From an uncultured Porticoccus sp. (GTDB taxonomy: Bacteria > Pseudomonadota > Gammaproteobacteria > Pseudomonadales > Porticoccaceae), in the NCBI GenBank assembly GCA_947259505.1, contig CAMYLT010000002.1, positions 328,598 through 392,597 on the forward strand: 64,000 nucleotides of DNA. The letters run 5' to 3'. The translations under genes and the position numbers were made by a program. Below, one piece after another: positions 14,727-43,425 of this stretch; position 1 is the first letter of the stretch, and every line of letters begins with the position of its first letter. The notes below the pieces were generated by a model, which searched no databases, was not told the origin of the DNA, and saw only the letters and a program-made list of their open reading frames with translations.

Positions 14727-15659
14727 CTAGGAAATCGGAGCGCGTTTAGGCCATCGCCTCTTCAAGCACATCCACTGTGTAGGGTCTTCTCGTATCCACT
14801 GTTCAAACAAGAGATTCAATTCGGTCGCCATCGCCAAGGCTTTTTCTCCACGGGAAAGACCCTCATCCTTCACCTCAATCGGGGGGCAGACCGTAATACG
14901 AAAACGGCCATGCGGCAGCCTTTCCGCTCTGACAGGCACCAGCTTGCAACCACTGTTCAGCGCCATTCTCGGCACCACTGTGTTTGTAGGAGTGGGCACA
15001 CCAAAAAAAGGCACTAACTCACCAGCATCAAGGCGCGTATCAACAACCAGCCCAACTGAATGGCCCTGGTTTAGCTCTTTGAGCAACTTGCGTATTCCGC
15101 CCTCAGCGGGGACCAATCTGGTACGGAAAGCGCTGCGTAAACGGGCAAAAAGTTTACTGAGATAAGGATTTGTTTCCTCGGCATAGACAGTCGAGATTGA
15201 AATACCGAACTGCGCGCCCACCAGGCAGGTCAATTGCCAAGCGCTAACATGCGCAGAGACAAACACAACCGGTTTGCCTGCAATGATTTCATCCATCACC
15301 GGGTCGACAACAAACTCGAGGTATTTGTCACGTTGGCGCCATATTTTATCCATGGAAACCAGTTCGCCGGCGGCGCGTCCCAGATTAGTAAAAATGGCTT
15401 TGACGGTCTGCTTCAGCTCCCTACCCTGAATACCCGGCACAACAAAGGGCAAATTTTTTCGAACCTTGGTGGCTTTTTGAGTGTAAGGACCCAAGAGGCC
15501 AAAGAGCCACCCCATAAAACCAATACATTGCCGGGGAGGGAGTAAACGAACAAGGCCCAACATCATTCGGAAAAACAATCCCTCTATCCACCAGGTAGTG
15601 CGCTGCAGAAAGGGGTATCGCTTAACCAGCTTTTTTGTAATCAGATAATGGGTAGGCAT
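14727..15659 (-). CDS. LpxL/HtrB-family lipid acyltransferase
   Basis: N-terminal TM segment, 310 aa, and LpxL-like layout: SAHVSAWQ at the HX4(D/E) position, VVDTRLD at the PDQD position, C-terminal EDPTQWMCLKRRW. Confidence 0.75.
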   Translation of the reverse strand: MPTHYLITKKLVKRYPFLQRTTWWIEGLFFRMMLGLVRLLPPRQCIGFMGWLFGLLGPYTQKATKVRKNLPFVVPGIQGRELKQTVKAIFTNLGRAAGELVSMDKIWRQRDKYLEFVVDPVMDEIIAGKPVVFVSAHVSAWQLTCLVGAQFGISISTVYAEETNPYLSKLFARLRSAFRTRLVPAEGGIRKLLKELNQGHSVGLVVDTRLDAGELVPFFGVPTPTNTVVPRMALNSGCKLVPVRAERLPHGRFRITVCPPIEVKDEGLSRGEKALAMATELNLLFEQWIREDPTQWMCLKRRWPKRAPIS

Positions 15660-15686
15660 GGCTATTCGATACTGGCAAAAACCAGT

Positions 15687-16322
15687 CTATTCCTCTTTAT
15701 AGCGAGGGGGTAATGACAAATTACCAGCGGTGGTTCCAAAGGCAAAATCCCAAAGGGGGGAGCTGACACCATAACGTCCATCCTGGCCCGAAAAGTGATG
15801 CAGCATGTGATAGCGTTTTAGGTAACGCAGTACCGGATTCCGCATGGGGAAATGGTGCGTAGCATAGTGAATATAGTCGTAGCAGAGGTAGCCGATAATG
15901 AAAAAGGCTCCAAATGTTTCCAGATATGCGCCGGAAAGAAATAGCGTAAACAACACCCACAATAATGACATGATCAGGATAGCGCCAGCAGGTGGCATCA
16001 CCAGCCGAGTCTTGTCCTGCGGATCATCATGATGCACACCGTGAAACAGGAACACCAATGACTTTCCTAGCTTGCTCGTCGCATCATAGTGGAACACAAA
16101 GCGATGCAGGCTGTATTCCATCAATGTCCAGACCAATAGGCCCAACACTGCCATCAGACTTAATTCCACAATTGGCATCTGATAAACAGCAACACTCCGC
16201 CAGATAAGCACCAGAGCGACCGGCAACCAGAGTAGCAGCGGAATAATCGGGTGGACGTGAGTAAGAGATTCCAACAGTGGATTCTTGAACAGTCTTATCG
16301 ATGAGCTTTCAACAGGTTGCAT
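15687..16322 (-). CDS. Membrane fatty acid hydroxylase / sterol desaturase superfamily (di-iron)
   Basis: Four or so TM helices and histidine boxes HRFVFH, HGVHHDD, HYATHH, HMLHH. Confidence 0.8.
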   Translation of the reverse strand: MQPVESSSIRLFKNPLLESLTHVHPIIPLLLWLPVALVLIWRSVAVYQMPIVELSLMAVLGLLVWTLMEYSLHRFVFHYDATSKLGKSLVFLFHGVHHDDPQDKTRLVMPPAGAILIMSLLWVLFTLFLSGAYLETFGAFFIIGYLCYDYIHYATHHFPMRNPVLRYLKRYHMLHHFSGQDGRYGVSSPLWDFAFGTTAGNLSLPPRYKEE

Positions 16323-16474
16323 GCTTGTATGTTACCAATAATCAATCTGTGTCGTCAGGCTCGTTTAAATTGGCCTACGCAGTTTAAGTTACCTGTCGAT
16401 AAATGCCCTTGCCGGCATTGCCGCTTGTTCCTAATCGGGCCTGGTTCGACCTAATGTAATACGCGTCTGACTGT

Positions 16475-17401
16475 TCAATCCCTAAAATGAGGCAGTGTCA
16501 ATTTCAGACCGTCTTGTAACGACACACGTGGTTGCCAACCAAGTGCCTCCGCGAGAGCGCCACTACCACAGACCCAATCCGGGTGTCTCAATTCTCTCAG
16601 CTTACCGGGCGTCAACATGGGCTGATAGCGAAAAAGAGCCGATATACACAAATTACACTTGGCTATCATATTCAACAGCCAATACGGGATAAACACAGGT
16701 CTCACCTTACGCCGGAATACCTTCGAGGCGACCCCTACAATCTCATCCCAGCTGTATCCGTTGGGAGCTGGGTCAGAGAGAGTAAAGACTTCCCGAGGCA
16801 CTCGCTCTGCACCTAACCAAGCTATCACGGCCGCCACCAGATCATCTATATAGACGAGAGAAACCCGACTATCCGCTGAGCCAGGAATTAATGCTAAGCC
16901 ACGGGACATTAACTGAAATACCGGCAGCATCTCTCGATCACCTGGGCCATATACGGCCGGCGGGCGGAAGACGGTCAGCTCGATCTCTGGGGCGGCTTGG
17001 AGCGCAGCCTGCTCTCCAAGAAACTTGCTTGCAGCATAATGGGAAAGATCAGGTTCTCTCGAAGCCAGTGATGACATGATTAGCACTCTTGGCTTACTGT
17101 CTGACTGACTTACCGCTGCAATCAACTGCTCTACGCCTGTAACATTTGCGGGATAATAATCTTGTAGCGAACGACCGCGCACAGCACCGGCACAGTGAAT
17201 AACGGAATGACATCCAACGAGTAATTGTTCAAGCGCAGCGCCGTCGGTGATAGAACCCTGTACCAGTTGAACGCCGGACTCAGTTAAGCCCTGGGCTTTG
17301 GACGGTGTTCGAACGAGGACTTTCAGCCGGTGCCCCTGTGACAGCAGCTCTCGGCAGATACTGCTCCCGATAAACCCCGTGGCGCCGGTTACCGCAATCA
17401 T
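16475..17401 (-). CDS. NAD(P)-dependent SDR (epimerase/dehydratase fold); candidate ceramide reductase (CerR-like)
   Basis: MIAVTGATGFIGS Rossmann motif and YAASK catalytic motif. The function is inferred from position between the acyl-AMP ligase and the rest of the ceramide set. An alternative TTG start is at 17410. Confidence 0.6.
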   Translation of the reverse strand: MIAVTGATGFIGSSICRELLSQGHRLKVLVRTPSKAQGLTESGVQLVQGSITDGAALEQLLVGCHSVIHCAGAVRGRSLQDYYPANVTGVEQLIAAVSQSDSKPRVLIMSSLASREPDLSHYAASKFLGEQAALQAAPEIELTVFRPPAVYGPGDREMLPVFQLMSRGLALIPGSADSRVSLVYIDDLVAAVIAWLGAERVPREVFTLSDPAPNGYSWDEIVGVASKVFRRKVRPVFIPYWLLNMIAKCNLCISALFRYQPMLTPGKLRELRHPDWVCGSGALAEALGWQPRVSLQDGLKLTLPHFRD

Positions 17402-17475
17402 TTCTGACAAAATTGTGACACCCCCAAGTTACCCGAGCCTCACAGCATAAGCGAATCGGCGAGTATCACCCTATG

Positions 17476-19254
17476 TCAGGCGCTGATACGTAGTGGTTTT
17501 TTTTCAAAAGAATCAACGTGATCATTGGCCGAGCCTGCATTAAGGCTTGCCATAAATTCCAGTCGAGCTTTCGAACGAGATAATTTTCCCGAGGAAGTGA
17601 CCGGCAAGGAATGCGGAGGCACTAGTTCAACGCGGCAATCCAGGCTTAACTCCTCACGAACCAGTCCGGTAAGGCGTTGTAACAGCTCATCCCTTTTGGA
17701 TTCATCTGCCTCCCGACACTGTACCAATACGACACAGTGCTCATCCCCATCCGGCTCAGCTGCGGAAAATGCCAATACATCCCCCACTCTGACTTCCGGC
17801 TGGGTTTCACAGAGATGCTCGATGTCCTGTGGCCAGATATTTCGACCATGAATGATAATAAGATCTTTGATACGGCCGGTTATGGTTAAAGTGCCATTGG
17901 AACGATAACCAAGATCACCGGTGTTGAGCCAACCGTCCTCACTCAACGCATGGCGAGTTTCCTCAGGCATACCAAAGTAACCGGACATGACGCTGGGACC
18001 TGACAAGTGAATAAGCCCGGTACAGTTATCGCCAAGCACATTCCCTTCTTTATCCCGAACCTCCACCTTGTAATCAGGGAGGGGCGCACCACAGTTAACA
18101 AAGTGTCGCCCTAAACGTTTATCGCCCTCATCCATCAATACCACTTTGTGGTGATTCAGGAGCTGCTCATGATCGACGTAATCGGTCGAATAACCTTGCC
18201 CCAAGGGAGAGAAGCTGACGCCAAGGGTACACTCCGCCATACCATAACATGCAAGGAACGCCTTCGGATTAAAGCCCGCAGGAGCCAATGTTTCAGCAAA
18301 CAGGTCCAGGCTGCGGGTGCGAATCATCTCTGCACCGATGCCCGCCACACGCCAATTGCTGAGATCGTAATTATTCGCTTCACCATTGCGCAGGCGCCGC
18401 GCACAGAGGTCGTAACCAAAGCATGGGCTGAAAGAAATCGTTGCACGTGTTTTGGTTAACAGGCTCAACCACTGTCGGGGGCGCATGGCAAATTCAAGCG
18501 TATCCAGGTAATCAACAGACAACTGGGCCGCGACAGGTACAAATACAAAACCAACCAAACCCATATCGTGATAGAACGGTAACCAGGACATACAGCGGTC
18601 TTTCGGCTGCACCTTGACCCCATGAGTGATAATTCCAGCGAGATTGCTCATGGCAGTGCGGTGCCTGATCATGACACCTTTTGGGAAGCGGGTACTGCCA
18701 GAAGTATATTGGAGATAGGCAATATCGTTGGGATCAATCAGCGGAAGCGACACATCAGCCGCCGCTGGCATCTCATCAAAGGTTTCCGGCTTGTCGACCA
18801 TGCGAATGGGAAGCCCTTCCCCGGCCTCCTTGAGGAATGACAAATAGCCCTCAGAAGCAACGGCCAATTGGGCGTCGCAGGCTTTCAGCAGCCGGTGTAA
18901 TTGAGACACGTAAGAGGTATGGGCACCAAGCTTAACGGCGGCGGGGAGCGGTACCGGCACCAGACCGGCGTATTGACTGGCAAAAAAGAAGAGCAGGAAG
19001 TGGGGAGCAGTCTCCGCCACCAAAGCAACCCGGTCTCCCTTCACAAACCCAAGCCCGATCAATTTTTTTGCCAACTCAACTGCATCATCACGCAGCTGGC
19101 GATAGCCCATTTGACTGTAGATTGAACCACGTCCGGTATAAAAATTGACTCCGGTTTCGCCTTGGGCAGCATAATCGAGGGCAGCAGGGAGCGAAGCAAA
19201 GTCAGCAGGGCGAAAAGGTAATTTGTGGGTAGTTGGCGTTGGTTCAAGCTGCAC
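17476..19254 (-). CDS. Fatty acyl-AMP ligase / acyl-ACP synthetase
   Basis: 592-aa adenylate-forming enzyme: YLQYTSGSTRFPKGV, GYGMAE-type block YGMAECT, TGDLGY. GTG start is preceded by GGTGAGG. Confidence 0.85.
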   Translation of the reverse strand: MQLEPTPTTHKLPFRPADFASLPAALDYAAQGETGVNFYTGRGSIYSQMGYRQLRDDAVELAKKLIGLGFVKGDRVALVAETAPHFLLFFFASQYAGLVPVPLPAAVKLGAHTSYVSQLHRLLKACDAQLAVASEGYLSFLKEAGEGLPIRMVDKPETFDEMPAAADVSLPLIDPNDIAYLQYTSGSTRFPKGVMIRHRTAMSNLAGIITHGVKVQPKDRCMSWLPFYHDMGLVGFVFVPVAAQLSVDYLDTLEFAMRPRQWLSLLTKTRATISFSPCFGYDLCARRLRNGEANNYDLSNWRVAGIGAEMIRTRSLDLFAETLAPAGFNPKAFLACYGMAECTLGVSFSPLGQGYSTDYVDHEQLLNHHKVVLMDEGDKRLGRHFVNCGAPLPDYKVEVRDKEGNVLGDNCTGLIHLSGPSVMSGYFGMPEETRHALSEDGWLNTGDLGYRSNGTLTITGRIKDLIIIHGRNIWPQDIEHLCETQPEVRVGDVLAFSAAEPDGDEHCVVLVQCREADESKRDELLQRLTGLVREELSLDCRVELVPPHSLPVTSSGKLSRSKARLEFMASLNAGSANDHVDSFEKKPLRISA

Positions 19255-20931: not shown

Positions 20932-20944
20932 CCTGAAGTACGCC

Positions 20945-21760
20945 ATGATCGATTCCCAAAACAACAACACCCTCACCGCAATTGTGCTGGCCGGCGAACG
21001 CTGCAGTACAGACCCCCTGCGCGAATTTCACGGCGCAGCCTGCAAGGCGTTAATCAAAATTGACGGCCAGCCAATGATCCATCGGGTGCTGGACGCATTG
21101 ACCTCCTCCAGTCAGATAGCTGACATCTGGTTATCCGGCCCGCAGCAGACATCGGTGGATGCCGATGATCGACTCAGCCGGGGCCTGGCCAACGGTGAGA
21201 TAACCTGGCGGAGCCCCGAGGCGACGCCCAGCACCAGCGCCTTCCGGGTCATGAGCGAAATACCTGTCGACCGGAAATGTCTGCTGACCACGGCGGATCA
21301 CCCGCTGCTGGACGCCGAAATCATTGACACATTTTGCCGGGAGAGCCTGGCCACGGGCGCCGATGTGGTGGTGGGAATGGCTCCCTATCCGCTAGTTCAC
21401 GCCAGTTTCCCGATGATGAAGAAGACGGTGCTGCGCTTTCAGGACGGCGAATTCTGCAACTGCAACCTGTTTGCTTTCCTGACCCCCGAGGGACGAAAAA
21501 TTGCTGACTTTTGGCGCAAGATCGAAAATCAGCGCAAAAAACCCATCATTTTGATTGGCCTGCTGGGATGGTGGTCGGTACTTCGCTATCGGTTTGGAAT
21601 GTTGTCGCGGGACGAGGCATTAGCTCGCCTGTCGAAGAAACTGGGTTTAAAACTCAAGGCGGTCACCCTGCCCTACGGCCATGCCGCCGTCGATGTGGAT
21701 TCCATTTCAGATTTCACCCTGGTGGAACAAAAACTAGCCGCCGCCCCCGCCAATTCCTAA
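20945..21760 (+). CDS. MobA-like NTP-transferase domain protein
   Basis: N-terminal AIVLAGERCSTDPL...KALIKIDGQPMI matches the LAGG-type nucleotidyltransferase signature. It starts 13 nt after the preceding gene. Confidence 0.6.
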   Translation: MIDSQNNNTLTAIVLAGERCSTDPLREFHGAACKALIKIDGQPMIHRVLDALTSSSQIADIWLSGPQQTSVDADDRLSRGLANGEITWRSPEATPSTSAFRVMSEIPVDRKCLLTTADHPLLDAEIIDTFCRESLATGADVVVGMAPYPLVHASFPMMKKTVLRFQDGEFCNCNLFAFLTPEGRKIADFWRKIENQRKKPIILIGLLGWWSVLRYRFGMLSRDEALARLSKKLGLKLKAVTLPYGHAAVDVDSISDFTLVEQKLAAAPANS

Positions 21761-21808: not shown

Positions 21809-22732
21809 CTAGCGGGGTATGGCAAATGATTCGGTGCCTACACTCACGAAACATGCCCCATCGTGCTGGTAGCGGCGACTGTCCAGCTGCAATATCCAGC
21901 CAGTTCCCGCGCTCTCCAGACTGTAGCGATTATATAGTGCCGTCTCTCCATGCTGCCCCAGCGCTGAAGAAGAGGGAACGCCGATCACCGGTGCCGTTTT
22001 TCCACCCGGCAGTTCAAGCATTTTATGTTGCCACTTGTGGCTGTGCCCGTGCAGCAACAATTCGACGCCGTGGCGACGGATGACATCGAGCAGTGCCTCC
22101 GCATCGCACAAGCGCTTTCGCCATTTTTCCTGCCCGGGGATCGGCGGATGGTGCAGATAAACCACCCTGAACAGTCCCTGTGAAGCTGTCTCTGCAAGCA
22201 GTGCGGACAGTTTCTTCAGCTGGGCACTGCCCAGTTTTCCTGTGGCGAAAAAAGGCGGTGTCGGCAGCGCACTGTTCAGGCCAATATATGCAATGCCATT
22301 CCGCACCTTCAGGGACGGGAAAGCCTGTGCCAGTGATGTCGGCTCTGCAGCGCCATCGGAGCGCAGATAGGGGAGCCACTGGAAGTAGGTATTCTGCCAG
22401 GACTCAACCACATAGCTGTCGTGATTTCCCGGCGCCACACTGATATCGCCAGCCACCGCCAACTGATCGAGCCAACCGCGAACCTGGGAGAACTCGTCCG
22501 GCAGTCCCAAGTGCGTCAGATCCCCGCTAACCAGCAGGTGGTTTACAGGCAAACTCAGATCGGCACGTAAGGCAGTCAGCACCGCAGTGCTGTGCTCACG
22601 ACGGCGCTTGCGACGCCAGGAAAGATAGCCCAACAATCTCTTGCTGAGCAGCTGTGAAAAAACCACGCCACTGAGATCCGACAGATGGAGATCGGAAAGG
22701 TGGACAAATACCTGTTTTGCTTCAGCACTCAT
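21809..22732 (-). CDS. Calcineurin-like metallophosphoesterase
   Basis: Motifs HLSDLH, SGDLTH, GNHD, LHHPP and GHSH occur in canonical order. Alternative GTG start at 22741. Confidence 0.8.
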   Translation of the reverse strand: MSAEAKQVFVHLSDLHLSDLSGVVFSQLLSKRLLGYLSWRRKRRREHSTAVLTALRADLSLPVNHLLVSGDLTHLGLPDEFSQVRGWLDQLAVAGDISVAPGNHDSYVVESWQNTYFQWLPYLRSDGAAEPTSLAQAFPSLKVRNGIAYIGLNSALPTPPFFATGKLGSAQLKKLSALLAETASQGLFRVVYLHHPPIPGQEKWRKRLCDAEALLDVIRRHGVELLLHGHSHKWQHKMLELPGGKTAPVIGVPSSSALGQHGETALYNRYSLESAGTGWILQLDSRRYQHDGACFVSVGTESFAIPR

Positions 22733-22787
22733 CGCTTGCACTGCCCGTTATCCGCCGATTAGGAAAGAGCCGATGACACCACCACCG

Positions 22788-23987: not shown

Positions 23988-24036
23988 GGAAAAGGTATTA
24001 CCTCCTGATGAGGGAACAGGAGCCGGAATGCCCCGG

Positions 24037-32896: not shown

Positions 32897-32928
32897 CCAA
32901 GTTAACCAAAAATTGCACTCACACTCTA

Positions 32929-35937: not shown

Positions 35938-36876
35938 TCAGGATGCAGCCGCCATCTTGGGCGCATCCTTGCCGATGCGCCAACGTTCTACTACTTCGAA
36001 TGCATCACTACGCAAGTGCCCCTGACGCATTTCATCGCGCAGTTGCTGTTCGGTGATGATTCCCTTCTCAAGACATTCACCAACCAGGCTGAAAAAGAAC
36101 CGCTCCTGATTCGGATCGGGATGCTCTTTGTAGCGACCGGCCAAACCATAATCACCAAACAGCGCCCTGCGGGCACGGCGCAACCAGTGCTTTGGCGGGA
36201 ACAGCTGGAACGTATCCGCCGCACGGAAATCCACCTTGAGGCCCGTCTTCCAGGGCTGAGTTTTGCGTTTGGTGTTGTGTAGCATGTGGGTCGCCGGGGT
36301 CAGGCGGTCAAAATCATTCCACTCATTTTCAAACAGGCCGATGGTATCCGGGTCCTCCAGCTTGAGGGATACCCAGTCCATGTAGTCGCGCTGTCCGGTG
36401 AACATCTCGTTGACATTCTCTTCCAGGCGCCAGTGGGTCAGTTTGGCGCAGTCCAGTAACATCACGCTGGAGGCCATGGCACCCCGGCGTCCTTTGTTGC
36501 CGGATTTGGGTCGACACATCAGCGCCGCTCCCTCCATATCCCGGGACAACAAATCCCATACATCACCTACGGCAAACACATCGGGATCGACCACCAACGC
36601 CCGGCCCGTGTAATTCATCAGTTGGGGGGGCGCGAACCGCAGCGGGGTGAACGACTGAAGATCATCATTCAACCAGGCGCGCATTTCGCCATCGCGCAGG
36701 TAGCGCTGCCCTTCACGCTCCTGCAAACAGGGGAAGTCCCGGTTGTGCATGAAGCGCACTTCGAACTTGTCGTTATGGCTGGAGTTGCGGCGGAACGCGT
36801 ATTCGCTGATCAATGCGCCGAGCCATTGCTTATGGTTGGCTTGAATAAAAACGCAGTAGTCCAAGGATGACCTCAC
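35938..36876 (-). CDS. GT8-like nucleotide-sugar transferase, paralog A
   Basis: DxD in ALVVDPDVFA and the GT8-type HxxGxxKPW-like motif LHNTKRKTQPWKTG. Paralogous to 38211..39158. GTG or TTG start. Confidence 0.5.
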   Translation of the reverse strand: MRSSLDYCVFIQANHKQWLGALISEYAFRRNSSHNDKFEVRFMHNRDFPCLQEREGQRYLRDGEMRAWLNDDLQSFTPLRFAPPQLMNYTGRALVVDPDVFAVGDVWDLLSRDMEGAALMCRPKSGNKGRRGAMASSVMLLDCAKLTHWRLEENVNEMFTGQRDYMDWVSLKLEDPDTIGLFENEWNDFDRLTPATHMLHNTKRKTQPWKTGLKVDFRAADTFQLFPPKHWLRRARRALFGDYGLAGRYKEHPDPNQERFFFSLVGECLEKGIITEQQLRDEMRQGHLRSDAFEVVERWRIGKDAPKMAAAS

Positions 36877-37065
36877 AATCGTCTAGAAGTGAAACAAACT
36901 CTATCGCCTGAGTGGTCGAATCCTAGCAGCTTGAAACGGCCAGATCACTCACCCAGATCAAATAATCGGCACTTTCCCCAGCCCGCAAATATCGCCATTC
37001 AAGCAGAATTGGTGGAATACCCCGAATTGGGTAAACTGCCTGTCTCGATCAGTATCGGTCTCCCC

Positions 37066-38151
37066 ATGACGCAATCAGAGCAAACAGCAACTCCACGAGT
37101 CTGGCTCTTATTCGGCCAAAAAGCCGGTGACAATAATCAGGCGCTGGCCCTGGCGGAACAACTGGGCTGGCCTTACACCATCAAGACCATCCACCATCAG
37201 CCCTGGGAACTAGTTACCAATCTGCTGCTGGGGCCCAACTTGAAAGGCGTCAAACTAAGGACTTCCAGTGAACTGGAAGCTCCCTGGCCAGACTTGATCA
37301 TCTCTGCCGGGCGTCGCAATGAGCCTGTGGCACGCTGGATTCGGCACCAATCAAGCGGCCAATCCCGCCTTGTCCATATCGGTCGCCCCTGGGCACCACT
37401 GGCCAGTTGGGACCTGATTGTTACCACGCCGCAATATTTCCTGCCCGCAGCCGACAACGTGCTGCTCAACCGTCTGCCCCTGCATCGGATCACCCCCGAG
37501 CGCCTGGCACTTGAGGCCACTACTGAATCACCCTGGCACAACCTGCCTCGGCCCTATACGGCAGTACTGCTGGGCGGTGACAGCGGACAGTTTGTCTTCA
37601 CGGCAGAGAAAGGACAACGGATGGGCTTGCTGGCGAACACACTGGTAAAAAGAATGGGCGGATCGGTGCTTATTTCCGATAGCCGGCGCACCCCGGCCGC
37701 CGCCAGCGAAGCCTTCTGGAAACAGCTATCTGTACCCGCCTGGCGCCATAACTGGCACGATGGCCAGAACAGCAACCCCTATATGGCCCTTCTCGCCCAA
37801 GCAGACCAGCTGGTGGTCACAGGGGAAAGCATGTCCATGCTCACTGAAGCCACCGCCACCGGCAAACCGCTGTTTATCTTCGACATGTCTGACCGGGACA
37901 GCCGCTGGTGGCGGCAATGCCACAATTACCGTCACAAACCCCTCAGCCATCGGCTCGCCATGGCACTGGGGCCGCGACGCATGCGCAGGGATATCGCCAG
38001 GATACAGGAAGCGTTGGTAGCGGATGGTCGGGCCGTCTGGCTCGATGACGAAAGCATCGGTCAGGGTGAATTATTTTCCGGGAAGAATGTTGCCCCGCGC
38101 GAGGCGGAGTGCCGGACCGCGGCACAGCGCATCAGAGATATGTTTGGCTAA
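37066..38151 (+). CDS. ELM1-family protein, paralog 3
   Basis: RVWLLFGQKAGDNNQ, APWPDLIISAGRRNEPVARWIRHQSSGQSRLVHIGRPW, WDLIVTTPQY, VLLGGDSG. ATG at 37066; the ORF-track GTG at 36889 adds a non-homologous leader. Confidence 0.7.
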   Translation: MTQSEQTATPRVWLLFGQKAGDNNQALALAEQLGWPYTIKTIHHQPWELVTNLLLGPNLKGVKLRTSSELEAPWPDLIISAGRRNEPVARWIRHQSSGQSRLVHIGRPWAPLASWDLIVTTPQYFLPAADNVLLNRLPLHRITPERLALEATTESPWHNLPRPYTAVLLGGDSGQFVFTAEKGQRMGLLANTLVKRMGGSVLISDSRRTPAAASEAFWKQLSVPAWRHNWHDGQNSNPYMALLAQADQLVVTGESMSMLTEATATGKPLFIFDMSDRDSRWWRQCHNYRHKPLSHRLAMALGPRRMRRDIARIQEALVADGRAVWLDDESIGQGELFSGKNVAPREAECRTAAQRIRDMFG

Positions 38152-38210: not shown

Positions 38211-39158
38211 TCAAGCGGCTTTGGCCTGCATACCCGACAGTGGGTGGCGGTCCGGCGGCGGTAAATCCGGGGTGCGGGCCAGCACCTCAAAAGCGTCGTG
38301 GCGCACATGGTTCTGGCGCATTTCCCCGCGCAGGAATTCCTCGCTGATTTTGCCCTGCTCCACACACTCCTTGAGCAGCCCGAAAAAGAACAATTCCTGG
38401 TGCTTGTCCGGGTGGACCTTGTAGTTGCCCAATAGGCCGTACTCGCCGAACACGTGACGACGGGCGCGCATCAGCCAGCCGATGGGCGGGAACGCCCGGA
38501 ATTTTTCCGCCGGGCGCCAGTCGGTGGGCAGTCCGGTTTTCCAGGGCTGGGTCTTGCGCCGGGTGGTGTGAAGCATTTTGGTATCAAGGGAAAGCTTATC
38601 GAAGTCATTCCACTCATTTTCCAGAAAACCAATGGTCTCAGGGTCCTCAGTTTTGAGGCCGATCCACGGCTGATAGTCCCAAGCCGAATCAAACATGGCA
38701 TTGAACTGCTGCTCCACCTTCCAGTGGGTGAGCTGGCTGCAATCGAGCAACATCACGCTGCTGGCGACCATCTTGTCGATATACCCTTTCGGACCCGAGC
38801 GCATCCTCGCCATAATGGCCTTGCCCTGCATATCCCGGGACAGCAGTTCCCAGATGTCCACCGCAGCAAAAACATCCGGATCGATCACTACCGCACGACC
38901 TTCATAATCCATCAATTCCGGTGGCATAAAGCGCGTCGGGGTGAAGGACTGGAGGTCCTCATTCAGCCATACCCGCTTGACGCCATCGCGCAGATAGGAC
39001 TGTCCCTCACGGGCAGCAAAATACGGGTAGTCACGGGTATCCATGATGGTGACGTCAAACAACTCATTGTGCCGGGAATAGCGGCGCAGCGCGTGCTCCG
39101 CCACAATGGCACCCGTTATCTGCTTATGATTGGTCTGGATAAATACACCGTACTTCAT
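38211..39158 (-). CDS. GT8-like nucleotide-sugar transferase, paralog B
   Basis: AVVIDPDVFA and LHTTRRKTQPWKTG. It aligns along its whole length with paralog A (roughly half the residues identical by eye). Confidence 0.5.
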   Translation of the reverse strand: MKYGVFIQTNHKQITGAIVAEHALRRYSRHNELFDVTIMDTRDYPYFAAREGQSYLRDGVKRVWLNEDLQSFTPTRFMPPELMDYEGRAVVIDPDVFAAVDIWELLSRDMQGKAIMARMRSGPKGYIDKMVASSVMLLDCSQLTHWKVEQQFNAMFDSAWDYQPWIGLKTEDPETIGFLENEWNDFDKLSLDTKMLHTTRRKTQPWKTGLPTDWRPAEKFRAFPPIGWLMRARRHVFGEYGLLGNYKVHPDKHQELFFFGLLKECVEQGKISEEFLRGEMRQNHVRHDAFEVLARTPDLPPPDRHPLSGMQAKAA

Positions 39159-39308
39159 GGCAAAACAACCCGACTGATTAGACCACCGCATAATAAGTCA
39201 ACACCGCCGATGGAATCCATCCGGCCCACCGGATCATTGCGCTTCAATTGATCCGGATCGGATTGCCACCACAGTGAAAACTGCTGCTAGCTGTGGCTCT
39301 CCTGCTGA

Positions 39309-40370: not shown

Positions 40371-40381
40371 AAGCGCCGTCG

Positions 40382-41416
40382 CTATAGGGCCAGGAATGAC
40401 AGTGGCCCGGCGGCGGTAATCACCACCGGCCCGTCTTCCCGGCGCACCGGCACAATTTCCCCATCCAGATTGAAACTGCCATCCATCAGCAGGGTAATTT
40501 GCCCCGCGCGGTGGCTGTGGTAGCCATCTGCGGCAGCGGGTTGAGCTTTGCGATTGCGCCGCAGGATGGACAGGAAAGTGCGCAGGAAACGCTTGGCATC
40601 GGAGGTGATCAGGCTCATTTTCAAGGGCGCCTCCCCGCTCCCCCAGAAGGGGTGAATGCCCAGAAACAGGCGCTCAAGACTGCTGATGGCGAGAATACGG
40701 GCATGAAACTCGCCATACCGCTCACCGTCCAGGGTGACATCCACGGGCAGTGGCTGATTGAATTCCGGGTGGCCACGGACAATGCCCCACAGGGTGCGCA
40801 CCAATCCCAGCCCCAAGCTGAAATCGTCTCGCAAGCCCCGAGAATGTATTTCCCGGTGAGCGTATTCGCTGGCCTGAATAATTGCCCCGCTGCCAAAAAA
40901 CATGCCGAAATGCGGCGCCCCGCCAGCGCCCACCTCCACCCGCAACACGTGTCGCTGTACCACCCTGCCCGCGATAAGCCGCTCACCGTGGCTCCAGAGG
41001 CAAAGCCGTTCCAGCGCCCGCAGCAGGGAGCCTTTTACCCCCACGTCACCGGCCGTCATATTGGCGGTGCCGCCGGGCAGCAGGGCTATCAGCGGCGGCG
41101 TCTTGAATGGGCTGTCCTGCAGCAGGTGGGCAAAGATATGCGCGGCGGTGCCGTCGCCCCCGTTGATCGCCAGCACTTCAACCGACTGACGGGCGATGTT
41201 TTCGAGTATCGTGGGAATTTCCGCAGCGGAAGAAGTCCGGTAGTGGAGCAAGCCGGGGCAACGCGAAACCAGTTCATCGACGCGACGTCGCTGGTCGCGG
41301 TTGTGGCCACTGTTGCAATTGCTGATCACAGCAATGGGGGTGGTGCGGCAAACCGCCTGCGGAGTCATCATGCTGGTCATACTATTACAAAGAAAGAAGA
41401 GGGACATGCCACGCAA
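40382..41416 (-). CDS. DAGK-catalytic-domain lipid kinase (YegS/LCB5 type); candidate ceramide kinase
   Basis: VLAINGGDGTAAHIF and LPGGTANMTAGD motifs. Its stop is 11 nt before the Tam41-like start. Own start uncertain (TTG 41416, ATG 41407 or 41380). Confidence 0.75.
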   Translation of the reverse strand: MRGMSLFFLCNSMTSMMTPQAVCRTTPIAVISNCNSGHNRDQRRRVDELVSRCPGLLHYRTSSAAEIPTILENIARQSVEVLAINGGDGTAAHIFAHLLQDSPFKTPPLIALLPGGTANMTAGDVGVKGSLLRALERLCLWSHGERLIAGRVVQRHVLRVEVGAGGAPHFGMFFGSGAIIQASEYAHREIHSRGLRDDFSLGLGLVRTLWGIVRGHPEFNQPLPVDVTLDGERYGEFHARILAISSLERLFLGIHPFWGSGEAPLKMSLITSDAKRFLRTFLSILRRNRKAQPAAADGYHSHRAGQITLLMDGSFNLDGEIVPVRREDGPVVITAAGPLSFLAL

Positions 41417-41498
41417 TTTACCACCCAGTTCTCAGGGCCGATTTTTCCTTGCTGGCCACCGATTCGGCCTTGTTGCAGCGCGCATCATACCGTAGCCG

Positions 41499-42425
41499 CT
41501 ACGGCAAAGTCGCCCGCCGGTCAGGGATGACTGCCCGAATCAGGTCGATGGCGGTTTCCCCCATCCTGGGCGCGGTACCCCTTATCTGTAGCGGCAGTCC
41601 TATGACGGGGTCCAGCAGGATACTGACAGGGCCCGTCAGTCCCATCAGTTCGAACTCATCCTCGGGCGCGGCGCCGACAGGCTGCACCTGCAATGACACC
41701 ACCAGTGCCGCCACAGGTTCCTTTACCTCGCGGGTGGTATTGCCGCTCAGCAGGCGGTAATCAACGGCCACCTCTTCCACGCCGGTCACCGCCATCTCCA
41801 CCCGCAGGTAATCCACATCGGTATAGAGATATTGAGTCCAGCTGTCTCCCAGTTTGTTGAGCGGTCCCGAGCTGACCGCCACCAGCAGGGCATAGGGAGA
41901 CAGCAGGGGTGGAGAAGCGGACAACGCTTCCGGGAATAGCCGCTGCATCGCGGAGGATTTGGACCAGAGCTCCGGCGACAAGCCACGCTCGGCGGCCAGC
42001 GGTTCCCGGCGCACCCGGTAAATACCCTGTTCCAACAGACGGTACTGTTTCATCCGCCGCTGTTTGCCCTCGCTGATGCGCGAACGCTGGTAGACCTGCA
42101 GATTATCCGGGTCCATCCAGATCGACACCTGCTCACGGCTGTTGCCGAGTTGACTCTGCACCCTCAACTGCCAGAGGGTGTCCCCCCCGGGGCAGACCGG
42201 TTTCATTCGCTCAGGAGATAACCATGTGTCGGCGACACTCGCAGCGGTCACCGGGCTGAGGGAGAGCGATGTCGAGGCCTTTAGCCACAAGTAATTCTTT
42301 GCGTAGGCCAATTCCGTCCACGGCGGGGTTGCGGGCTGCTGGCCGGCGAGAACCGACGACGAGCCAACCGCGCCTTGGGTCAGTGCCAGCGCTAACAATC
42401 CAACTTGTAACAAGCTTCTCAACAT
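41499..42425 (-). CDS. Secreted protein of unknown function
   Basis: ATG at 42425 gives the signal peptide MLRSLLQVGLLALALTQGAVG. I recognise no motif. The 450-aa ORF-track version adds an implausible Cys/Arg-rich leader. Confidence 0.55.
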   Translation of the reverse strand: MLRSLLQVGLLALALTQGAVGSSSVLAGQQPATPPWTELAYAKNYLWLKASTSLSLSPVTAASVADTWLSPERMKPVCPGGDTLWQLRVQSQLGNSREQVSIWMDPDNLQVYQRSRISEGKQRRMKQYRLLEQGIYRVRREPLAAERGLSPELWSKSSAMQRLFPEALSASPPLLSPYALLVAVSSGPLNKLGDSWTQYLYTDVDYLRVEMAVTGVEEVAVDYRLLSGNTTREVKEPVAALVVSLQVQPVGAAPEDEFELMGLTGPVSILLDPVIGLPLQIRGTAPRMGETAIDLIRAVIPDRRATLP

Positions 42426-42621
42426 GGAGAACTTCCCACCCTCTCGGCACACGGATGCCGATATCCTGACGATTTCAGCTTGAAAACGCCAGCGGCCCCG
42501 GGAGCACCCGGTGACCCCGGAAGCAGCCCGATAACATTCCACTGACACCATTACCCCGATACCATGACATAGTATGCTCAGCATCCAAGCTTTGTGTGGC
42601 AACACAATAATCCCGAGAAAA

Positions 42622-43425
42622 ATGAATCCCGAGAAATCCGCAACCCATCGCAACAGTGACCGACTTTCGTTACCAAAAAGCGGGACTGTCCACCTGTGGC
42701 TAATGGCGAGCGATGAAATCCACTGCGGTGCGAAACAATCCAACTGGGTCAGCCTCCTACCTACAGGGGAGCGCGAGCGGGTTTTGCGCCAACTGGCGCC
42801 GGAGGATAAACAACAGGCCCTAGCCACCCGGGTGCTCATTCGTGCAGTCATCTCCGCTTACCTGGGAGAAAACCCCGGTGACTGGCGTTTCGACGCCTCG
42901 CCAACTGGCAAACCCTTTCTGATCGATGCCCCAGAACCTGTGGCATTCAACCTTTCCCATTCCGGTAATCTGGTGGCCTGTGTCATAAGCGGGGAGCAGG
43001 TAATCGGGGTGGATATCGAAGATAGTCGTGTGGAACGCAACTTCCTCGCTCTTGCCAGGCGCTTTTTTGCCCCGCAGGAGTACACAGAATTAGCCAGCCT
43101 GCCCGCCGCTGCGCAGGCCGACTACTTCTACCATCTCTGGACCCTGAAAGAATCCTGCCTAAAGGCCAGGGGACGGGGATTGGCCAACGGACTGGACAGT
43201 TACCGCTTCCAGCGGGACAGCCACGGCAAATACCACCTCTCCGCCCCGCCGGATACATCAGGACAATGGCAGCACCAGTTACTCGCCGAACAGCCCGGAT
43301 ATCAAATTGCCATTAGCCAGCGCAGTACCCACCAGCGGCCTCCCGACATGTGCGTTGAAACCTACCGTATGGACTCGGAGCGGTTGTTAACATTATGGCG
43401 GGGACAACACTCACCCCATCTGTAA
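42622..43425 (+). CDS. Sfp-type 4'-phosphopantetheinyl transferase
   Basis: FNLSHSGNLV, VGVDIE and WTLKESCLKARG motifs. Start uncertain (42574-42700). Confidence 0.8.
   Translation: MNPEKSATHRNSDRLSLPKSGTVHLWLMASDEIHCGAKQSNWVSLLPTGERERVLRQLAPEDKQQALATRVLIRAVISAYLGENPGDWRFDASPTGKPFLIDAPEPVAFNLSHSGNLVACVISGEQVIGVDIEDSRVERNFLALARRFFAPQEYTELASLPAAAQADYFYHLWTLKESCLKARGRGLANGLDSYRFQRDSHGKYHLSAPPDTSGQWQHQLLAEQPGYQIAISQRSTHQRPPDMCVETYRMDSERLLTLWRGQHSPHL

Follow-up and report, generated by a model that had tools for sequence, protein, structure and literature searches.

A lineage-wide Porticoccus gene cluster predicted to build a sulfated, glycosylated sphingolipid

Which product is made by a block of 26 open reading frames in which ceramide-type genes stand beside three sulfotransferases and several glycosyltransferases? 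The block (positions 14727-43425) lies in a stretch of 64,000 nucleotides from an uncultured Porticoccus, referred to here as the window. An earlier note, made from the letters alone, had placed it between housekeeping genes, with GST and tRNA-Arg on one side and a GGDEF gene on the other, and the ORF calls and flanking genes agree:

12926-13002: tRNA-Arg, flank
13894-14529: GST, flank, which also holds an RsmE-type methyltransferase
43512-44381: PAS-GGDEF gene, flank

The six functional groups proposed at that time cover 24 of these genes, but leave out an NTP_transf_3 nucleotidyltransferase and a Metallophos phosphoesterase. Family assignments were judged against Pfam and NCBIfam cut-offs; profile HMMs or fold comparison put the ORFs in the families named, a few of them weakly or below cut-off. 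Co-conservation was counted over 46 loci of Halieaceae/Porticoccaceae, each complete over ±10 kb around one of the sulfotransferases (ST1), and the gene set proved to be co-conserved among relatives rather than juxtaposed by chance. Both checks support the suggested sulfated sphingolipid, the chemistry of which is still inferred. Judging from orthologue lengths, the first-start-codon ORFs of Spt, ELM1a, ELM1c, bCerS, Unk and the PPTase are probably overextended at their 5′ ends.

Candidate ceramide and phospho head-group genes

The ceramide set had been described as complete. Spt, ACP, the acyl-AMP ligase and the Epimerase/SDR reductase exceed their cut-offs, but the GNAT match of the bCerS candidate is weak:

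22788-24077 (-): serine palmitoyltransferase Spt; NF047599, 598 bits against a cut-off of 500; true start probably near 23987
24037-24276 (-): dedicated ACP, AcpR-type; PP-binding, 44.6 bits; serine motif GLSSL
17476-19254 (-): fatty acyl-AMP ligase (FAAL)/acyl-ACP synthetase, AasR-type; NF006624, 780.6 bits against 600
16475-17410 (-): SDR reductase, CerR candidate; Pfam Epimerase, 96.6 bits
19720-20931 (+): GNAT-like N-acyltransferase, bCerS candidate; weak Acetyltransf_1 match, 27.4 bits; true start probably near 19792
42574-43425 (+): Sfp-type phosphopantetheinyl transferase (PPTase); ACPS, 79.4 bits; AASDHPPT_N, 49.2 bits

Spt also matches Aminotran_1_2 (211 bits) and its translation contains the PLP-lysine motif GTFSKSLG, while the ligase matches AMP-binding (192.6 bits). 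The CerR candidate, with motifs GATGFIG and YAASK, lies directly downstream of the ligase both here and in a related locus, L087. The bCerS candidate ORF encodes 403 aa, with no single stretch of its GNAT match above cut-off; its orthologues (382-387 aa) adjoin the nucleotidyltransferase in loci L003 and L085, and this placement resembles that of Caulobacter CC_1154 beside CC_1153/1152. The PPTase, whose two matches exceed their cut-offs and which also forms the cluster edge in L086 and L088, is proposed to serve the dedicated ACP. The ACP is the gene listed above, not an 81-aa ORF at 27449-27694.

The candidate genes for a phosphorylated head group are the following:

40382-41416 (-): DAGK-type lipid kinase, ceramide kinase CpgB candidate; DAGK_cat, 48.4 bits
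39441-40370 (-): Tam41/Mmp37-like protein, CpgC (CC_1161) counterpart; orthologues match Tam41_Mmp37
20945-21760 (+): MobA-like nucleotidyltransferase, CC_1153/CpgD-type; NTP_transf_3, 49.3 bits; CTP_transf_3, 27.7 bits
21809-22741 (-): calcineurin-like metallophosphoesterase, CC_1158-type; Metallophos, 46.9 bits

The kinase exceeds the DAGK_cat cut-off and its translation contains a GGDG motif; its matches to NCBIfam models of YegS-like lipid kinases are below cut-off. As the earlier note had stated, the Tam41-like gene follows 11 nt downstream, an adjacency like that of Caulobacter CC_1160 and CC_1161. The window copy of the Tam41-like protein has no Pfam match; 15 of 23 orthologues match Tam41_Mmp37, the best with E 9.3e-7, and have no match to another family. 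The nucleotidyltransferase, whose Caulobacter counterparts are needed for CPG2 (PMC11324152, PMC12275187), occurs in 36/46 loci, and the metallophosphoesterase, which here follows ACP-Spt in the same orientation, in 39/46. By analogy, the four genes match the known ceramide-phosphoglycerate (CPG) head-group module of Caulobacter (PMC11324152, PMC12275187). The CDP-alcohol transferase CpgA of that module is missing from the cluster, which leaves the CPG2 route incomplete; the head group must be completed by something else. Since this module is already described in Caulobacter, the new part of the locus is its layer of ELM1, GT8-like and sulfotransferase genes.

Glycosyltransferases, sulfotransferases and lipid-modifying enzymes

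This layer comprises:

24270-25559 (+): ELM1-family GT-B transferase a; Mito_fiss_Elm1, 212.6 bits against 27; true start probably downstream of 24270
28635-29783 (+): ELM1-family GT-B transferase b, paired with ST1; 178.5 bits against 27
36889-38151 (+): ELM1-family GT-B transferase c; 207.5 bits against 27; true start probably near 37066
35938-36876 (-): GT8-like GT-A glycosyltransferase a (GTXa), without Pfam family; paralogue of 38211-39191
38211-39191 (-): GT8-like GT-A glycosyltransferase b (GTXb), without Pfam family; placed by AF2 model and Foldseek
27682-28608 (+): sulfotransferase ST1; Sulfotransfer_1, 77.7 bits against 22
33960-34961 (+): sulfotransferase ST2; 79.3 bits against 22
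34958-35914 (+): sulfotransferase ST3; 85.6 bits against 22

All three genes previously assigned to the ELM1 family score far above the cut-off. ELM1a, divergent from ACP-Spt, is found in 41/46 loci, ELM1b in 45 and ELM1c in 34. The AF2 model of ELM1b (pLDDT 87.7) has GT-B proteins as top Foldseek matches (EarP, UGTs, MurG, WaaF and TarL). The sequence of GT8-like b finds no match in Pfam, NCBIfam or PDB, and none of its 5782 homologues bears a name; D103-P104-D105 is invariant. Among the Foldseek matches of its AF2 model (pLDDT 78, pTM 0.82), GT8/GT-A glycosyltransferases come first, including WbbM, the GT8 protein 3tzt, LARGE1, XXYLT1, GlyE, LgtC, UGGT and glycogenin (E 6e-7 to 4e-4). GT8-like a is its 58%-identical paralogue with the invariant D-P-D motif in common, and the proposed pair of GT8-like genes is thus retained; each occurs in 37/46 loci.

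The three predicted PAPS-type sulfotransferases are likewise borne out, with Sulfotransfer_1 scores above cut-off and 5′-PSB and 3′-PB motifs invariant in ST1, ST2 and ST3. ST1, about 70% identical across Halieaceae/Porticoccaceae, is related to cytosolic SULT structures (1q44, 2.4e-14), and its orthologues lack at the aligned position the His of ST2 and ST3. ST1 is paired with ELM1b in 45/46 loci; ST2 (37/46) and ST3 (35/46), whose reading frames overlap by 4 nt, adjoin GT8-like a. In the variant L088 the ELM1, GT8-like, kinase, Tam41-like, ABC, LptFG and ACP genes are kept with no sulfotransferase, and the sulfotransferases accordingly look like an optional layer. It is gene neighbourhood that suggests their link to ceramide; the literature searched yielded nothing connecting sulfotransferases to a bacterial spt locus.

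Enzymes that may modify the lipid, an exporter and a secreted protein complete the conserved part:

14727-15659 (-): LpxL-like (LPLAT) acyltransferase; Pfam Lip_A_acyltrans, 140.7 bits
15687-16322 (-): membrane di-iron fatty acid/sphingoid hydroxylase; Pfam FA_hydroxylase, 78.8 bits
29824-30450 (-): 2OG-Fe(II) oxygenase a, conserved; 2OG-FeII_Oxy_3, 32.4 bits against 27
25539-27302 (-): MsbA-like ABC half-transporter, candidate dedicated lipid flippase; ABC_membrane and ABC_tran
41499-42428 (-): conserved secreted protein (Unk), about 309 aa, signal-peptide-like N-terminus

The hydroxylase, the acyltransferase and this 2OG oxygenase (39/46 loci) exceed their cut-offs, but a second 2OG protein and a methyltransferase named with them do not. 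The hydroxylase has three TM-like segments and is kept beside LpxL-like genes in L085 and L087; in L087 LpxL-like copies share a same-strand run with AasR, CerR, the fatty acid hydroxylase (FAH) and the ceramide kinase (CerK). The grouping of exporter, Sfp-type PPTase and secreted protein also stood. The ABC half-transporter (41/46 loci) exceeds the cut-offs of both its families and has six TM-like segments. It was rejected as MsbA (TIGR02203, 250 bits against 602), as was the acyltransferase as canonical LpxL (72 bits on the LpxL/LpxP model TIGR02207 against 297.8), and scores so far below cut-off argue that neither is a housekeeping LPS enzyme. Unk had no match in family searches; its orthologues (267-317 aa, 32-34% identity across families) adjoin the kinase in L003, L086, L087 and L088.

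Conservation, proposed product and competing readings

The proteins of the window share 95-97% identity with Porticoccus MAG proteins. ST1 has relatives in 194 matching stretches of a one-genome-per-species collection; almost all of the best 80 of the 194 bear the label Halieaceae, Porticoccaceae or unclassified Gammaproteobacteria, and a few that of Alteromonadaceae or Chromatiaceae. Within 10 kb of ST1, Spt is found in 40 and ACP in 41 of the 46 loci, the individual ELM1 and GT8-like genes and the two other sulfotransferases in 34-45; all 46 have one or more genes of the ceramide set or the CPG module there. Gene order is kept across these loci. One strand of L087 bears the run AasR-CerR-LpxL-FAH-LpxL-Unk-CerK-Tam41-GT8-like, in which no gap exceeds 68 nt. 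A Chromatiales MAG (L085) has the same content in shuffled order; there ELM1-Tam41-kinase-Unk-GT8-like share a strand, and a sulfotransferase adjoins the nucleotidyltransferase and bCerS. The cluster is a biosynthetic locus of lineage-wide occurrence in Porticoccaceae/Halieaceae (Cellvibrionales), present in the window in a Porticoccus-type genome.

The functions of CC_1152-1168 have been described in Caulobacter, where sphingolipid export depends on LptF2/G2, and lptF2/lptG2 are stated to occur in many gammaproteobacterial sphingolipid loci (PMC11324152; PMC12275187; bioRxiv 10.64898/2026.04.12.717747, the last also for the gammaproteobacterial loci). LptF/LptG-type genes lie within the cluster in most relatives but not in the Porticoccus type. 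Those of relatives score 250-277 against canonical equivalog cut-offs of 230/240, just above, and a bona fide murA lies in the Halieaceae cluster (29/46 loci), so the neighbourhood may in part be a region of general envelope genes. Two cluster variants contain Wzy_C ligase/polymerase-like genes.

From gene content and Caulobacter precedent, it is fairly likely that the product of the locus is an anionic lipid of the outer membrane, anchored by ceramide, glycosylated and O-sulfated, which is assembled in the cytoplasm and flipped by the ABC protein. The order of steps follows family membership, operon links and Caulobacter. The ACP, activated by the PPTase, would be loaded by the acyl-AMP ligase, and Spt would condense acyl-ACP with serine; the bCerS-like GNAT would add the N-acyl chain and the SDR reduce the 3-keto group, giving ceramide. 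The di-iron hydroxylase and the conserved 2OG oxygenase would hydroxylate the lipid part, to which the LpxL-like enzyme possibly adds an O-acyl chain. The kinase would form ceramide-1-phosphate, and the Tam41-like protein, nucleotidyltransferase and metallophosphoesterase a phospho-linked first head-group unit comparable to Caulobacter CPG, whose second, CpgA-dependent unit is lacking here. Three ELM1 and two GT8-like transferases would then extend an oligosaccharide, a strain-variable cassette would decorate it, and the three cytosolic-type sulfotransferases would add sulfate esters. Topology prediction found no TM-like segments in the ELM1, sulfotransferase, GT8-like, 2OG, kinase or Tam41-like proteins, which suggests that these enzymes work at the inner membrane, on its cytoplasmic side. 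Caulobacter CerR is reportedly periplasmic, which would complicate a purely cytoplasmic order. After flipping, LptF/LptG-type permeases, encoded in this genome outside the cluster if at all, would pass the product to the Lpt bridge. Such a sulfated, sugar-bearing sphingolipid would be a lipid type without a described bacterial pathway; sulfated ceramides of presumed bacterial origin are found in seawater, their genes not assigned (PMC11334938).

The main competitor, though unlikely, is a sulfated LPS/LOS core built on lipid A and exported by the transferase, sulfotransferase, LpxL-like, ABC and LptFG genes, while a less elaborate pathway to ceramide or ceramide phosphate shares the envelope neighbourhood (one locus, two products). 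ELM1, GT8 and LpxL-type are classic LPS/LOS core families. Only one bacterial member of the ELM1 family has been characterised, 2903/GtrOC1 of A. baumannii; it acts on the LOS inner core and is needed there for the third Kdo/GlcNAcA (PMC10936431). ELM1-family GtrOC proteins recur in Acinetobacter OC loci; GT8 includes many LPS outer-core transferases, with LgtC among the GT8-like fold matches and the heptosyltransferase WaaF among those of ELM1b. The LptF/LptG scores, murA and Wzy_C genes of relatives point the same way, and S. meliloti LpsS (named in PMC12445080) is a precedent for sulfated LPS. Yet WaaA, GT9 heptosyltransferase, LpxK and Kds genes occur in no annotated cluster copy, the ABC and LpxL-like proteins are far under the MsbA and LpxL cut-offs, and the Porticoccus-type cluster has all the transferases without in-cluster LptFG or murA. 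The same-strand runs of L087 (GT8-like with AasR, CerR, kinase and Tam41-like) and L085 (ELM1 with Tam41-kinase-Unk-GT8-like) also argue against this reading.

It is more doubtful still that the lipid is just a Caulobacter-like anionic phosphosphingolipid, with sulfotransferases and glycosyltransferases acting on some other acceptor, soluble or secreted, that has nothing to do with it (exopolysaccharide, small molecule or protein). The kinase, Tam41-like, nucleotidyltransferase and metallophosphoesterase genes match the CPG module, ST1 is closest to small-molecule cytosolic SULTs, and L088 implies that the core system can do without sulfotransferases; but CpgA is absent and the CPG2 route incomplete, the ST1-ELM1b pairing and the position of ST2/ST3 beside GT8-like a are against it, and Wza/Wzc/KpsMT, a Wzx flippase and an undecaprenyl-phosphate priming transferase were not found in the window's block. 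A non-ceramide product, such as a sulfonolipid-like or acylated amino-alcohol natural product made by a Spt-like enzyme using an amino acid other than serine, is very improbable: alpha-oxoamine synthases are hard to assign from sequence, but Spt exceeds its curated equivalog cut-off (598 against 500) and scores far lower on BioF, Kbl and CqsA-type models, and the surrounding genes correspond one by one, CpgA excepted, to those of the Caulobacter locus for ceramide and CPG.

A low-GC cassette within the cluster

The term island, in the sense of horizontal transfer, does not hold for a lineage-wide locus. The sole strain-specific part is a three-gene cassette (30920-33684, minus strand; GC 0.38-0.45 against about 0.55 in the neighbourhood); the rest is not a mobile island:

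30920-31888 (-): GT2-like; Pfam, 21.6 bits against 23.3
32102-32896 (-): second 2OG-like protein; 24.5 bits against 27
32929-33684 (-): methyltransferase-like; 16.7 bits against 27

All three are below cut-off, and the GT2-like transferase named earlier is a weak assignment. The cassette occurs in 0/46 loci, and a search for flanking repeats around it found none. At the equivalent site, the sister Porticoccus MAG (L086) carries a different cassette, which includes a UDP-galactopyranose mutase.

Organization of the locus and its predicted ceramide genes

The locus comprises 26 consecutive genes between positions 14727 and 43425, as delimited by ORF listing and translation. Judged from its sequence, it is rated as a Caulobacter-type sphingolipid locus with a new, conserved layer of glycosylation and sulfation. 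The earlier note had described a contiguous block of 26 genes between housekeeping flanks, and this is borne out by the ORF listing, the profiles and the tRNA call. The neighbouring and main internal features are the following.

12926-13002, tRNA-Arg, left flank
Left flank, RsmE-type methyltransferase gene
Left flank, GST gene
14727-43425, 26-gene cluster
20945-21760, MobA-like nucleotidyltransferase
21809-22741, calcineurin-like phosphoesterase
24037-24276, minus strand, acyl carrier protein (ACP)
27682-28608, sulfotransferase ST1
33960-34961, sulfotransferase ST2
34958-35914, sulfotransferase ST3
35938-36876, GT8-like protein a (GT8a)
38211-39191, GT8-like protein b (GT8b)
41499-42428, secreted protein Unk
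Right flank, PAS-GGDEF protein gene

Both outer flanks are ordinary housekeeping DNA, with genes for aconitase B, PHB depolymerase, MiaE, a dihydroorotate-dehydrogenase-family protein, QueF, an ABC-2 transporter, an aminotransferase, NAD kinase, a 2-hydroxyacid dehydrogenase and RlmM. At 10088-11494, two long opposite-strand ORFs overlap (442 aa on the minus strand, 445 aa on the plus strand), the minus-strand ORF being without a Pfam match. To the right of the GGDEF gene, a stretch of low GC content (∼0.46; 44000-46300) carries an ORF of 122 aa and the gene of a NOV_C-domain protein (45057-45905), ends at a tRNA-Ser (46129-46216) and may represent a small accessory islet. Within the cluster, the first-start ORFs of Unk and of the phosphopantetheinyl transferase (PPTase), at 41499-42851 and 42574-43425, overlap head to head by ∼280 nt; their orthologues in a sister Porticoccus MAG (317 and 265 aa) indicate that the real genes are probably shorter, with a divergent promoter region between them.

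The six functional groups proposed previously cover 24 of the genes but omit the MobA-like nucleotidyltransferase and the calcineurin-like phosphoesterase. Most ORFs are placed by profile search in the families assigned to them earlier, while matches are weak for the bCerS-like GNAT protein, the GT2-like protein, the second 2OG protein and the methyltransferase. Curated Pfam or NCBIfam cut-offs are exceeded by Spt, the ACP, the fatty acyl-AMP ligase (FAAL), the SDR/Epimerase protein, three Sulfotransfer_1 and three Mito_fiss_Elm1 proteins, as well as by the DAGK_cat, Lip_A_acyltrans and FA_hydroxylase proteins, the ABC half-transporter, the Sfp-type PPTase and one 2OG oxygenase. Spt is of the proteobacterial type (equivalog NF047599, 598 bits versus a cut-off of 500) and has the PLP-lysine motif GTFSKSLG. 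The ACP gene lies directly upstream of spt (PP-binding, 44.6 bits); an 81-aa ORF in the gap between the ABC gene and ST1 (27449-27694), also considered as the ACP, was ruled out by translation. The fatty acyl-AMP ligase scores 780.6 bits against NF006624 (cut-off 600), and the Sfp-type PPTase accompanies this enzyme and the dedicated ACP within the cluster.

The other candidates, named after their Caulobacter counterparts, are assigned with varying ease. The CerR candidate gives a clear SDR/Epimerase match in Pfam, and the bCerS candidate has the expected size and neighbours, a weak GNAT match and no PDB match. A candidate CpgB-type ceramide kinase (DAGK_cat, 48.4 bits) is separated by an 11-nt gap from the gene of the Tam41-like protein; the window copy of the latter has no Pfam match, and 15 of its 23 orthologues match Tam41_Mmp37 and no other family. 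Candidates for the CpgD/CC_1153-type nucleotidyltransferase and the CC_1158-type phosphoesterase score above cut-off (NTP_transf_3 and Metallophos), with a single nucleotidyltransferase present. The latter cannot be equated with CpgD, as the PDB search returned only an uncharacterised Thermus protein (2dpw). Pfam searches of all island ORFs found no CpgA (PF01066), and a six-frame search detected no CDP-alcohol phosphotransferase motif of the CpgA type in the window or in 85 related loci. As CpgA is required to add the second phosphoglycerate, CPG2 was rejected as the product.

In Caulobacter, the region CC_1152-CC_1168 (CCNA_01210-01226) encodes AasR, CerR, AcpR, Spt, bCerS and CpgB beside the Tam41-like CpgC, together with the CDP-alcohol transferase CpgA, a calcineurin-like phosphoesterase, LptF2, LptG2, LptC2 and two nucleotidyltransferases, one of which is CpgD, the CTP:phosphoglycerate cytidylyltransferase (PMC11324152, PMC12275187). 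Gammaproteobacterial copies of this locus occur in Azotobacter vinelandii and Pseudomonas luteola. Common to Caulobacter and the window are Spt, a dedicated ACP, an acyl-ACP synthetase, a candidate SDR reductase, a candidate GNAT-type ceramide synthase with a neighbouring MobA/NTP_transf_3 nucleotidyltransferase, a DAGK-type kinase adjoining a Tam41-like protein, and a calcineurin-like phosphoesterase. The match of the ceramide set to the Caulobacter logic, as the earlier note had it, is upheld by the Spt, ACP and acyl-AMP ligase profiles. Since the window reproduces the Caulobacter set with the exceptions of CpgA, LptC2 and LptF/G, its kinase-dependent anionic module is already known. A periplasmic location has been reported for CerR of Caulobacter (PMC11087976), so that reduction may precede or follow head-group assembly.

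The two loci also differ. CpgA, LptC2 and the HIT protein are missing from the window, which has one nucleotidyltransferase, and LptF/LptG lie inside the locus in Caulobacter and most relatives but not in the window. As candidate flippase, the window encodes an MsbA-like ABC protein, and Caulobacter the Wzx-like CC_1166. The window adds three ELM1 proteins, two GT8-like proteins, three sulfotransferases, a 2OG oxygenase, the LpxL-like acyltransferase, a hydroxylase and a variable cassette. From this gene content, the ELM1, GT8-like and sulfotransferase proteins form the predicted new layer, to which the LpxL-like acyltransferase and the MsbA-like ABC protein come as further additions.

Enzymes of the predicted glycosylation and sulfation layer

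The three ELM1 proteins, a, b and c, belong to Mito_fiss_Elm1 (PF06258), with scores of 212.6, 178.5 and 207.5 bits versus a cut-off of 27. For ELM1b, an AF2 model (pLDDT 87.7) has GT-B proteins as top matches in a fold search. The two GT8-like paralogues match neither Glyco_transf_8 nor any other Pfam or NCBIfam model and form an unnamed family with 5782 homologues at E ≤ 0.001. In the AlphaFold model (pLDDT 78, pTM 0.82), GT8/GT-A glycosyltransferases rank first in Foldseek, namely WbbM, the GT8 protein 3tzt, LARGE1, XXYLT1, GlyE, LgtC and glycogenin, with probabilities of 0.99-1.00 and TM scores of only 0.3-0.5. The residues D103-P104-D105 are invariant in 24 sequences. The GT8-like label given earlier is therefore retained for the modelled fold, which appears to be GT-A near GT8 with a DxD motif, but not as membership of the sequence family. 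PDB sequence searches with ELM1b, GT8b, the Tam41-like protein and bCerS yielded nothing usable.

The sulfotransferases match Sulfotransfer_1 with 77.7 (ST1), 79.3 (ST2) and 85.6 bits (ST3) versus a cut-off of 22. All three keep the PAPS-binding motifs 5'-PSB (PKSGxTW) and 3'-PB (RxPxD..S), and residues K53, S54, G55, T57, W58, R130, P132, D134 and S138 are invariant across the ST1 orthologues, ST2 and ST3. PDB sequence matches liken them to cytosolic SULTs, and they are soluble and SULT-like. ST1 orthologues carry AATNG where ST2 and ST3 read FFTH[ND]NY; the histidine of ST2 and ST3, which may be the catalytic base, is thus an asparagine in ST1. Despite this change, conservation among the three is highest for ST1, with ∼70% identity across families. 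ST1 is paired with ELM1b in 45 of 46 related loci, and the ST2 and ST3 genes overlap by 4 nt and adjoin GT8a, which suggests that each sulfotransferase acts on a sugar set by the neighbouring transferase. As for PAPS supply (APS kinase), a profile search of the 64-kb window found no cys genes.

All ELM1, sulfotransferase, GT8-like, 2OG, kinase and Tam41-like proteins are devoid of TM-like segments, and the ABC protein has six. The latter scores 250 bits against the MsbA model TIGR02203 (cut-off 602), and the LpxL-like acyltransferase scores 72 bits against TIGR02207 (297.8) and 56.7 bits against TIGR02208 (336). By these scores, the ABC and LpxL-like proteins of the island are not the housekeeping MsbA and LpxL/LpxM.

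Conservation and variants of the cluster

The proteins ST1, ELM1b and GT8b are 95-97% identical to proteins of Porticoccus sp. MAGs. Scanning a collection of one genome per species with the ST1 alignment gave 194 matching stretches. Of the best 80, nearly all carry the label Halieaceae, Porticoccaceae or unclassified Gammaproteobacteria, and a few that of Alteromonadaceae or Chromatiaceae. Cultured carriers include Halioglobus japonicus, Pseudohaliea rubra DSM 19751, Mangrovimicrobium sediminis, Haliea sp. E17 and Halioglobus sp. Uisw_031. All window proteins were then compared by tblastn with related loci.

Table. Occurrence of window proteins in the 46 related loci having full ±10 kb flanks (tblastn); flank length limits the counts of distal genes.
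Protein, loci
Spt, 40/46
ACP, 41/46
ELM1a, 41/46
ABC protein, 41/46
ELM1b, 45/46
2OGa (2OG protein), 39/46
ST2, 37/46
ST3, 35/46
GT8-like a, 37/46
ELM1c, 34/46
GT8-like b, 37/46

The conserved order is bCerS-NTase-phosphoesterase-Spt-ACP-ELM1a-ABC-(LptG-LptF)-ST1-ELM1b-2OG-ST2-ST3-GT8a-ELM1c-GT8b-Tam41-kinase-Unk. In a Porticoccaceae MAG the whole set is contiguous, and AasR-CerR-LpxL-FAH-LpxL-Unk-kinase-Tam41-GT8b follow one another on a single strand, no gap between them exceeding 68 nt. In a Chromatiales MAG the content is kept and the order shuffled, with ELM1-Tam41-kinase-Unk-GT8b on the same strand and a sulfotransferase adjoining the nucleotidyltransferase and bCerS. A further variant keeps all but the sulfotransferases and GT8a. 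The counts and order in the 46 loci, together with these three variants, point to a single system, conserved as a unit, in which optional layers are added to a core, and the possibility of several unrelated loci, left to be checked by the earlier note, is thereby answered in favour of co-conservation.

A pair of LptF and LptG genes lies between the ABC gene and ST1 in most Halieaceae loci (36 of 46 loci; for example at 7734-9868 in locus L066), and narrowly passes the canonical NCBIfam equivalog cut-offs (250-277 versus 230/240). In one Porticoccaceae MAG (L003), LptF and LptG are fused into a 712-aa protein. The in-cluster pair is missing from the window (27303-27681) and from other Porticoccus-like loci, where the gap measures 250-400 nt. 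An EPSP_synthase-family gene separates the phosphoesterase gene from spt in 29 of 46 loci (2078-3328 in L066) and is absent from the window cluster; considered as an enolpyruvyl- or glycerate-type head-group enzyme, it proved to be plain murA (TIGR01072, 585 bits versus 392.7). Wzy_C genes, resembling O-antigen ligases/polymerases, occur in two variants, at 1761-3101 in the Chromatiales MAG and at 8589-9806 in the variant lacking sulfotransferases (on a 5.3-Mb contig), which hints that a polymer may be ligated to the lipid in some lineages.

No integrase or other mobility gene was found by Pfam among the 26 ORFs. The term island, in the sense of horizontal acquisition, is not sustained, and a mobile island is ruled out by the lack of mobility genes and the synteny across two families, the cassette itself being variable. 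Only the segment at 30.5-33.7 kb is atypical (GC 0.38-0.45), with three genes encoding GT2-like, 2OG-like and methyltransferase-like proteins. None of the 46 related loci has this low-GC cassette, and a search for repeats flanking it was negative. In the sister Porticoccus MAG, which shares the right flank, another cassette occupies the site (15645-18920) and includes a bona fide UDP-galactopyranose mutase, and the site looks like the hypervariable slot of a surface-glycan locus. In a Halieaceae MAG (L001, 8568-9812) and a second contig from the same sample (L002, 2158-9442), the region upstream of ST1 has given way to genes for integrase/transposase and a reverse transcriptase of the group II intron type, so that the sulfotransferase half is split from the spt half.

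Candidate product and relation to known lipids

In the simplest model, the ceramide reading, the ceramide anchor would be made and then phosphorylated, and at the cytoplasmic face it would undergo as many as five glycosyl (or related) transfers and as many as three sulfations. The dedicated ABC protein would then flip the product, and Lpt-type machinery would export it. In Caulobacter, LptF2 and LptG2 are required for sphingolipid export, and they are reportedly present in many gammaproteobacterial sphingolipid loci (bioRxiv 10.64898/2026.04.12.717747). It is conceivable, if on the doubtful side, that the locus goes further and amounts to a full, parallel assembly line of the ‘LPS-like’ kind, with ceramide in the role of lipid A and sulfate in that of phosphate. 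Ceramide and the kinase would then stand in for the lipid A phosphates, the LpxL-like enzyme would provide secondary acylation, ELM1 (GT-B) and GT8-like (GT-A) proteins would build the core oligosaccharide, and sulfate esters would take the place of phosphate as anionic cross-linking groups. The MsbA-like protein would be the dedicated flippase alongside LptF/G permeases, a WaaL/Wzy_C-type ligase could add polymer in some relatives, and the strain-variable cassette would correspond to the variable region of O-antigen or outer core. If so, abundant coastal bacterioplankton (Halieaceae/OM60-NOR5, Porticoccaceae) would carry the product as a major lipid of their surface, and its economy of sulfur for phosphorus would suit phosphate-poor seawater.

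Decoration of the LPS/LOS core by the same transferases, the main rival reading, is regarded as unlikely. It would agree with the only studied bacterial ELM1-family protein, A. baumannii 2903/GtrOC1, which is needed for the third Kdo/GlcNAcA of the LOS core and whose substrate is a membrane-anchored glycolipid on the cytoplasmic side, with GT8-family enzymes alongside in OC loci (PMC10936431, PMC4172580). This protein and the window ELM1 proteins share the Pfam family Mito_fiss_Elm1 and the GT-B fold, but its acceptor is Kdo2-lipid A, whereas the window ELM1 genes have ceramide genes as neighbours, and neither WaaA nor Kds genes lie close by. WaaA, GT9, LpxK and Kds genes are absent from every annotated cluster copy, and the GT8-like and ELM1 genes are operon-linked to those of the kinase, the Tam41-like protein, AasR and CerR. 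GT8 and LpxL-type enzymes are nevertheless classic LPS families, and LPS sulfation has a precedent in LpsS, named as the LPS sulfotransferase of S. meliloti (PMC12445080). The true murA inside Halieaceae clusters, the LptF/LptG of the same clusters, which narrowly pass the canonical cut-offs, and the Wzy_C-type genes of two variants also speak for a link to LPS; Porticoccus-type clusters, however, keep all the transferases without LptFG or murA.

Under the preferred ceramide reading, the locus physically couples a sphingolipid pathway to three PAPS sulfotransferases, to ELM1 and to an unnamed GT8-like family with thousands of members. Bacterial sphingolipid synthesis has been worked out only recently; sugars, phosphoglycerate, phosphoinositol and related groups are known as heads. 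To our knowledge, the function of the ELM1 and unnamed GT8-like families is barely known. The prediction, if true, would define a new lipid class and provide an acceptor for both families, and would suggest how marine Gammaproteobacteria gain negative surface charge without spending phosphorus. It bears on how sphingolipids reach the outer membrane and, given the strain-variable cassette, on recognition by phages and grazers. With several cultured carriers, it is directly testable.

The sphingomonad glycosphingolipids GSL-1 to GSL-4, which replace LPS, resemble the predicted product as ceramide-anchored, sugar-bearing, anionic lipids of the outer membrane. Their charge comes from uronic acids and they carry no sulfate. 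Their glycosyltransferases are of other families than those of the window. Lpt-type machinery is their suspected carrier (bioRxiv 10.64898/2026.04.12.717747), and sphingomonad sphingolipid genes are scattered over the genome (PMC11324152).

The predicted sulfations compare with three bacterial systems that differ in their anchors (trehalose esters, lipid A and chitooligosaccharide) and use a single sulfotransferase each. These are mycobacterial sulfolipid-1 (Stf0), the LPS of S. meliloti (LpsS) and the Nod factor (NodH), in which a cytoplasmic PAPS sulfotransferase acts on a lipid-linked sugar before export. We know of none that is linked to spt. Among sulfur-bearing sphingoid lipids, the sulfonolipids of Bacteroidota (capnine, sulfobacins) contain a C-S sulfonate derived from cysteate via an Spt-like enzyme, with no PAPS step, and eukaryotic sulfatide, a glycosyl-ceramide bearing an O-linked sulfate, is formed in the Golgi by a type-II membrane sulfotransferase that belongs to another family. 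The predicted product would likewise be a sulfur-bearing sphingoid lipid, but the three enzymes of the window are soluble and SULT-like.

Literature searches combining bacterial sphingolipids or spt with sulfotransferases or sulfated products, or addressing sphingolipids in Halieaceae, found nothing relevant in the library searched; in agreement with the earlier note, no described bacterial sphingolipid pathway with a sulfotransferase tied to spt was encountered. Sulfate-1-deoxyceramides of presumed bacterial origin have been described by metalipidomics of the Black Sea, in a text that makes no mention of sulfotransferase, Gammaproteobacteria, Halieaceae or Cellvibrionales (PMC11334938). These lipids have 1-deoxy bases, carry the sulfate on the fatty-acyl chain and are attributed to anaerobes (PMC11334938).
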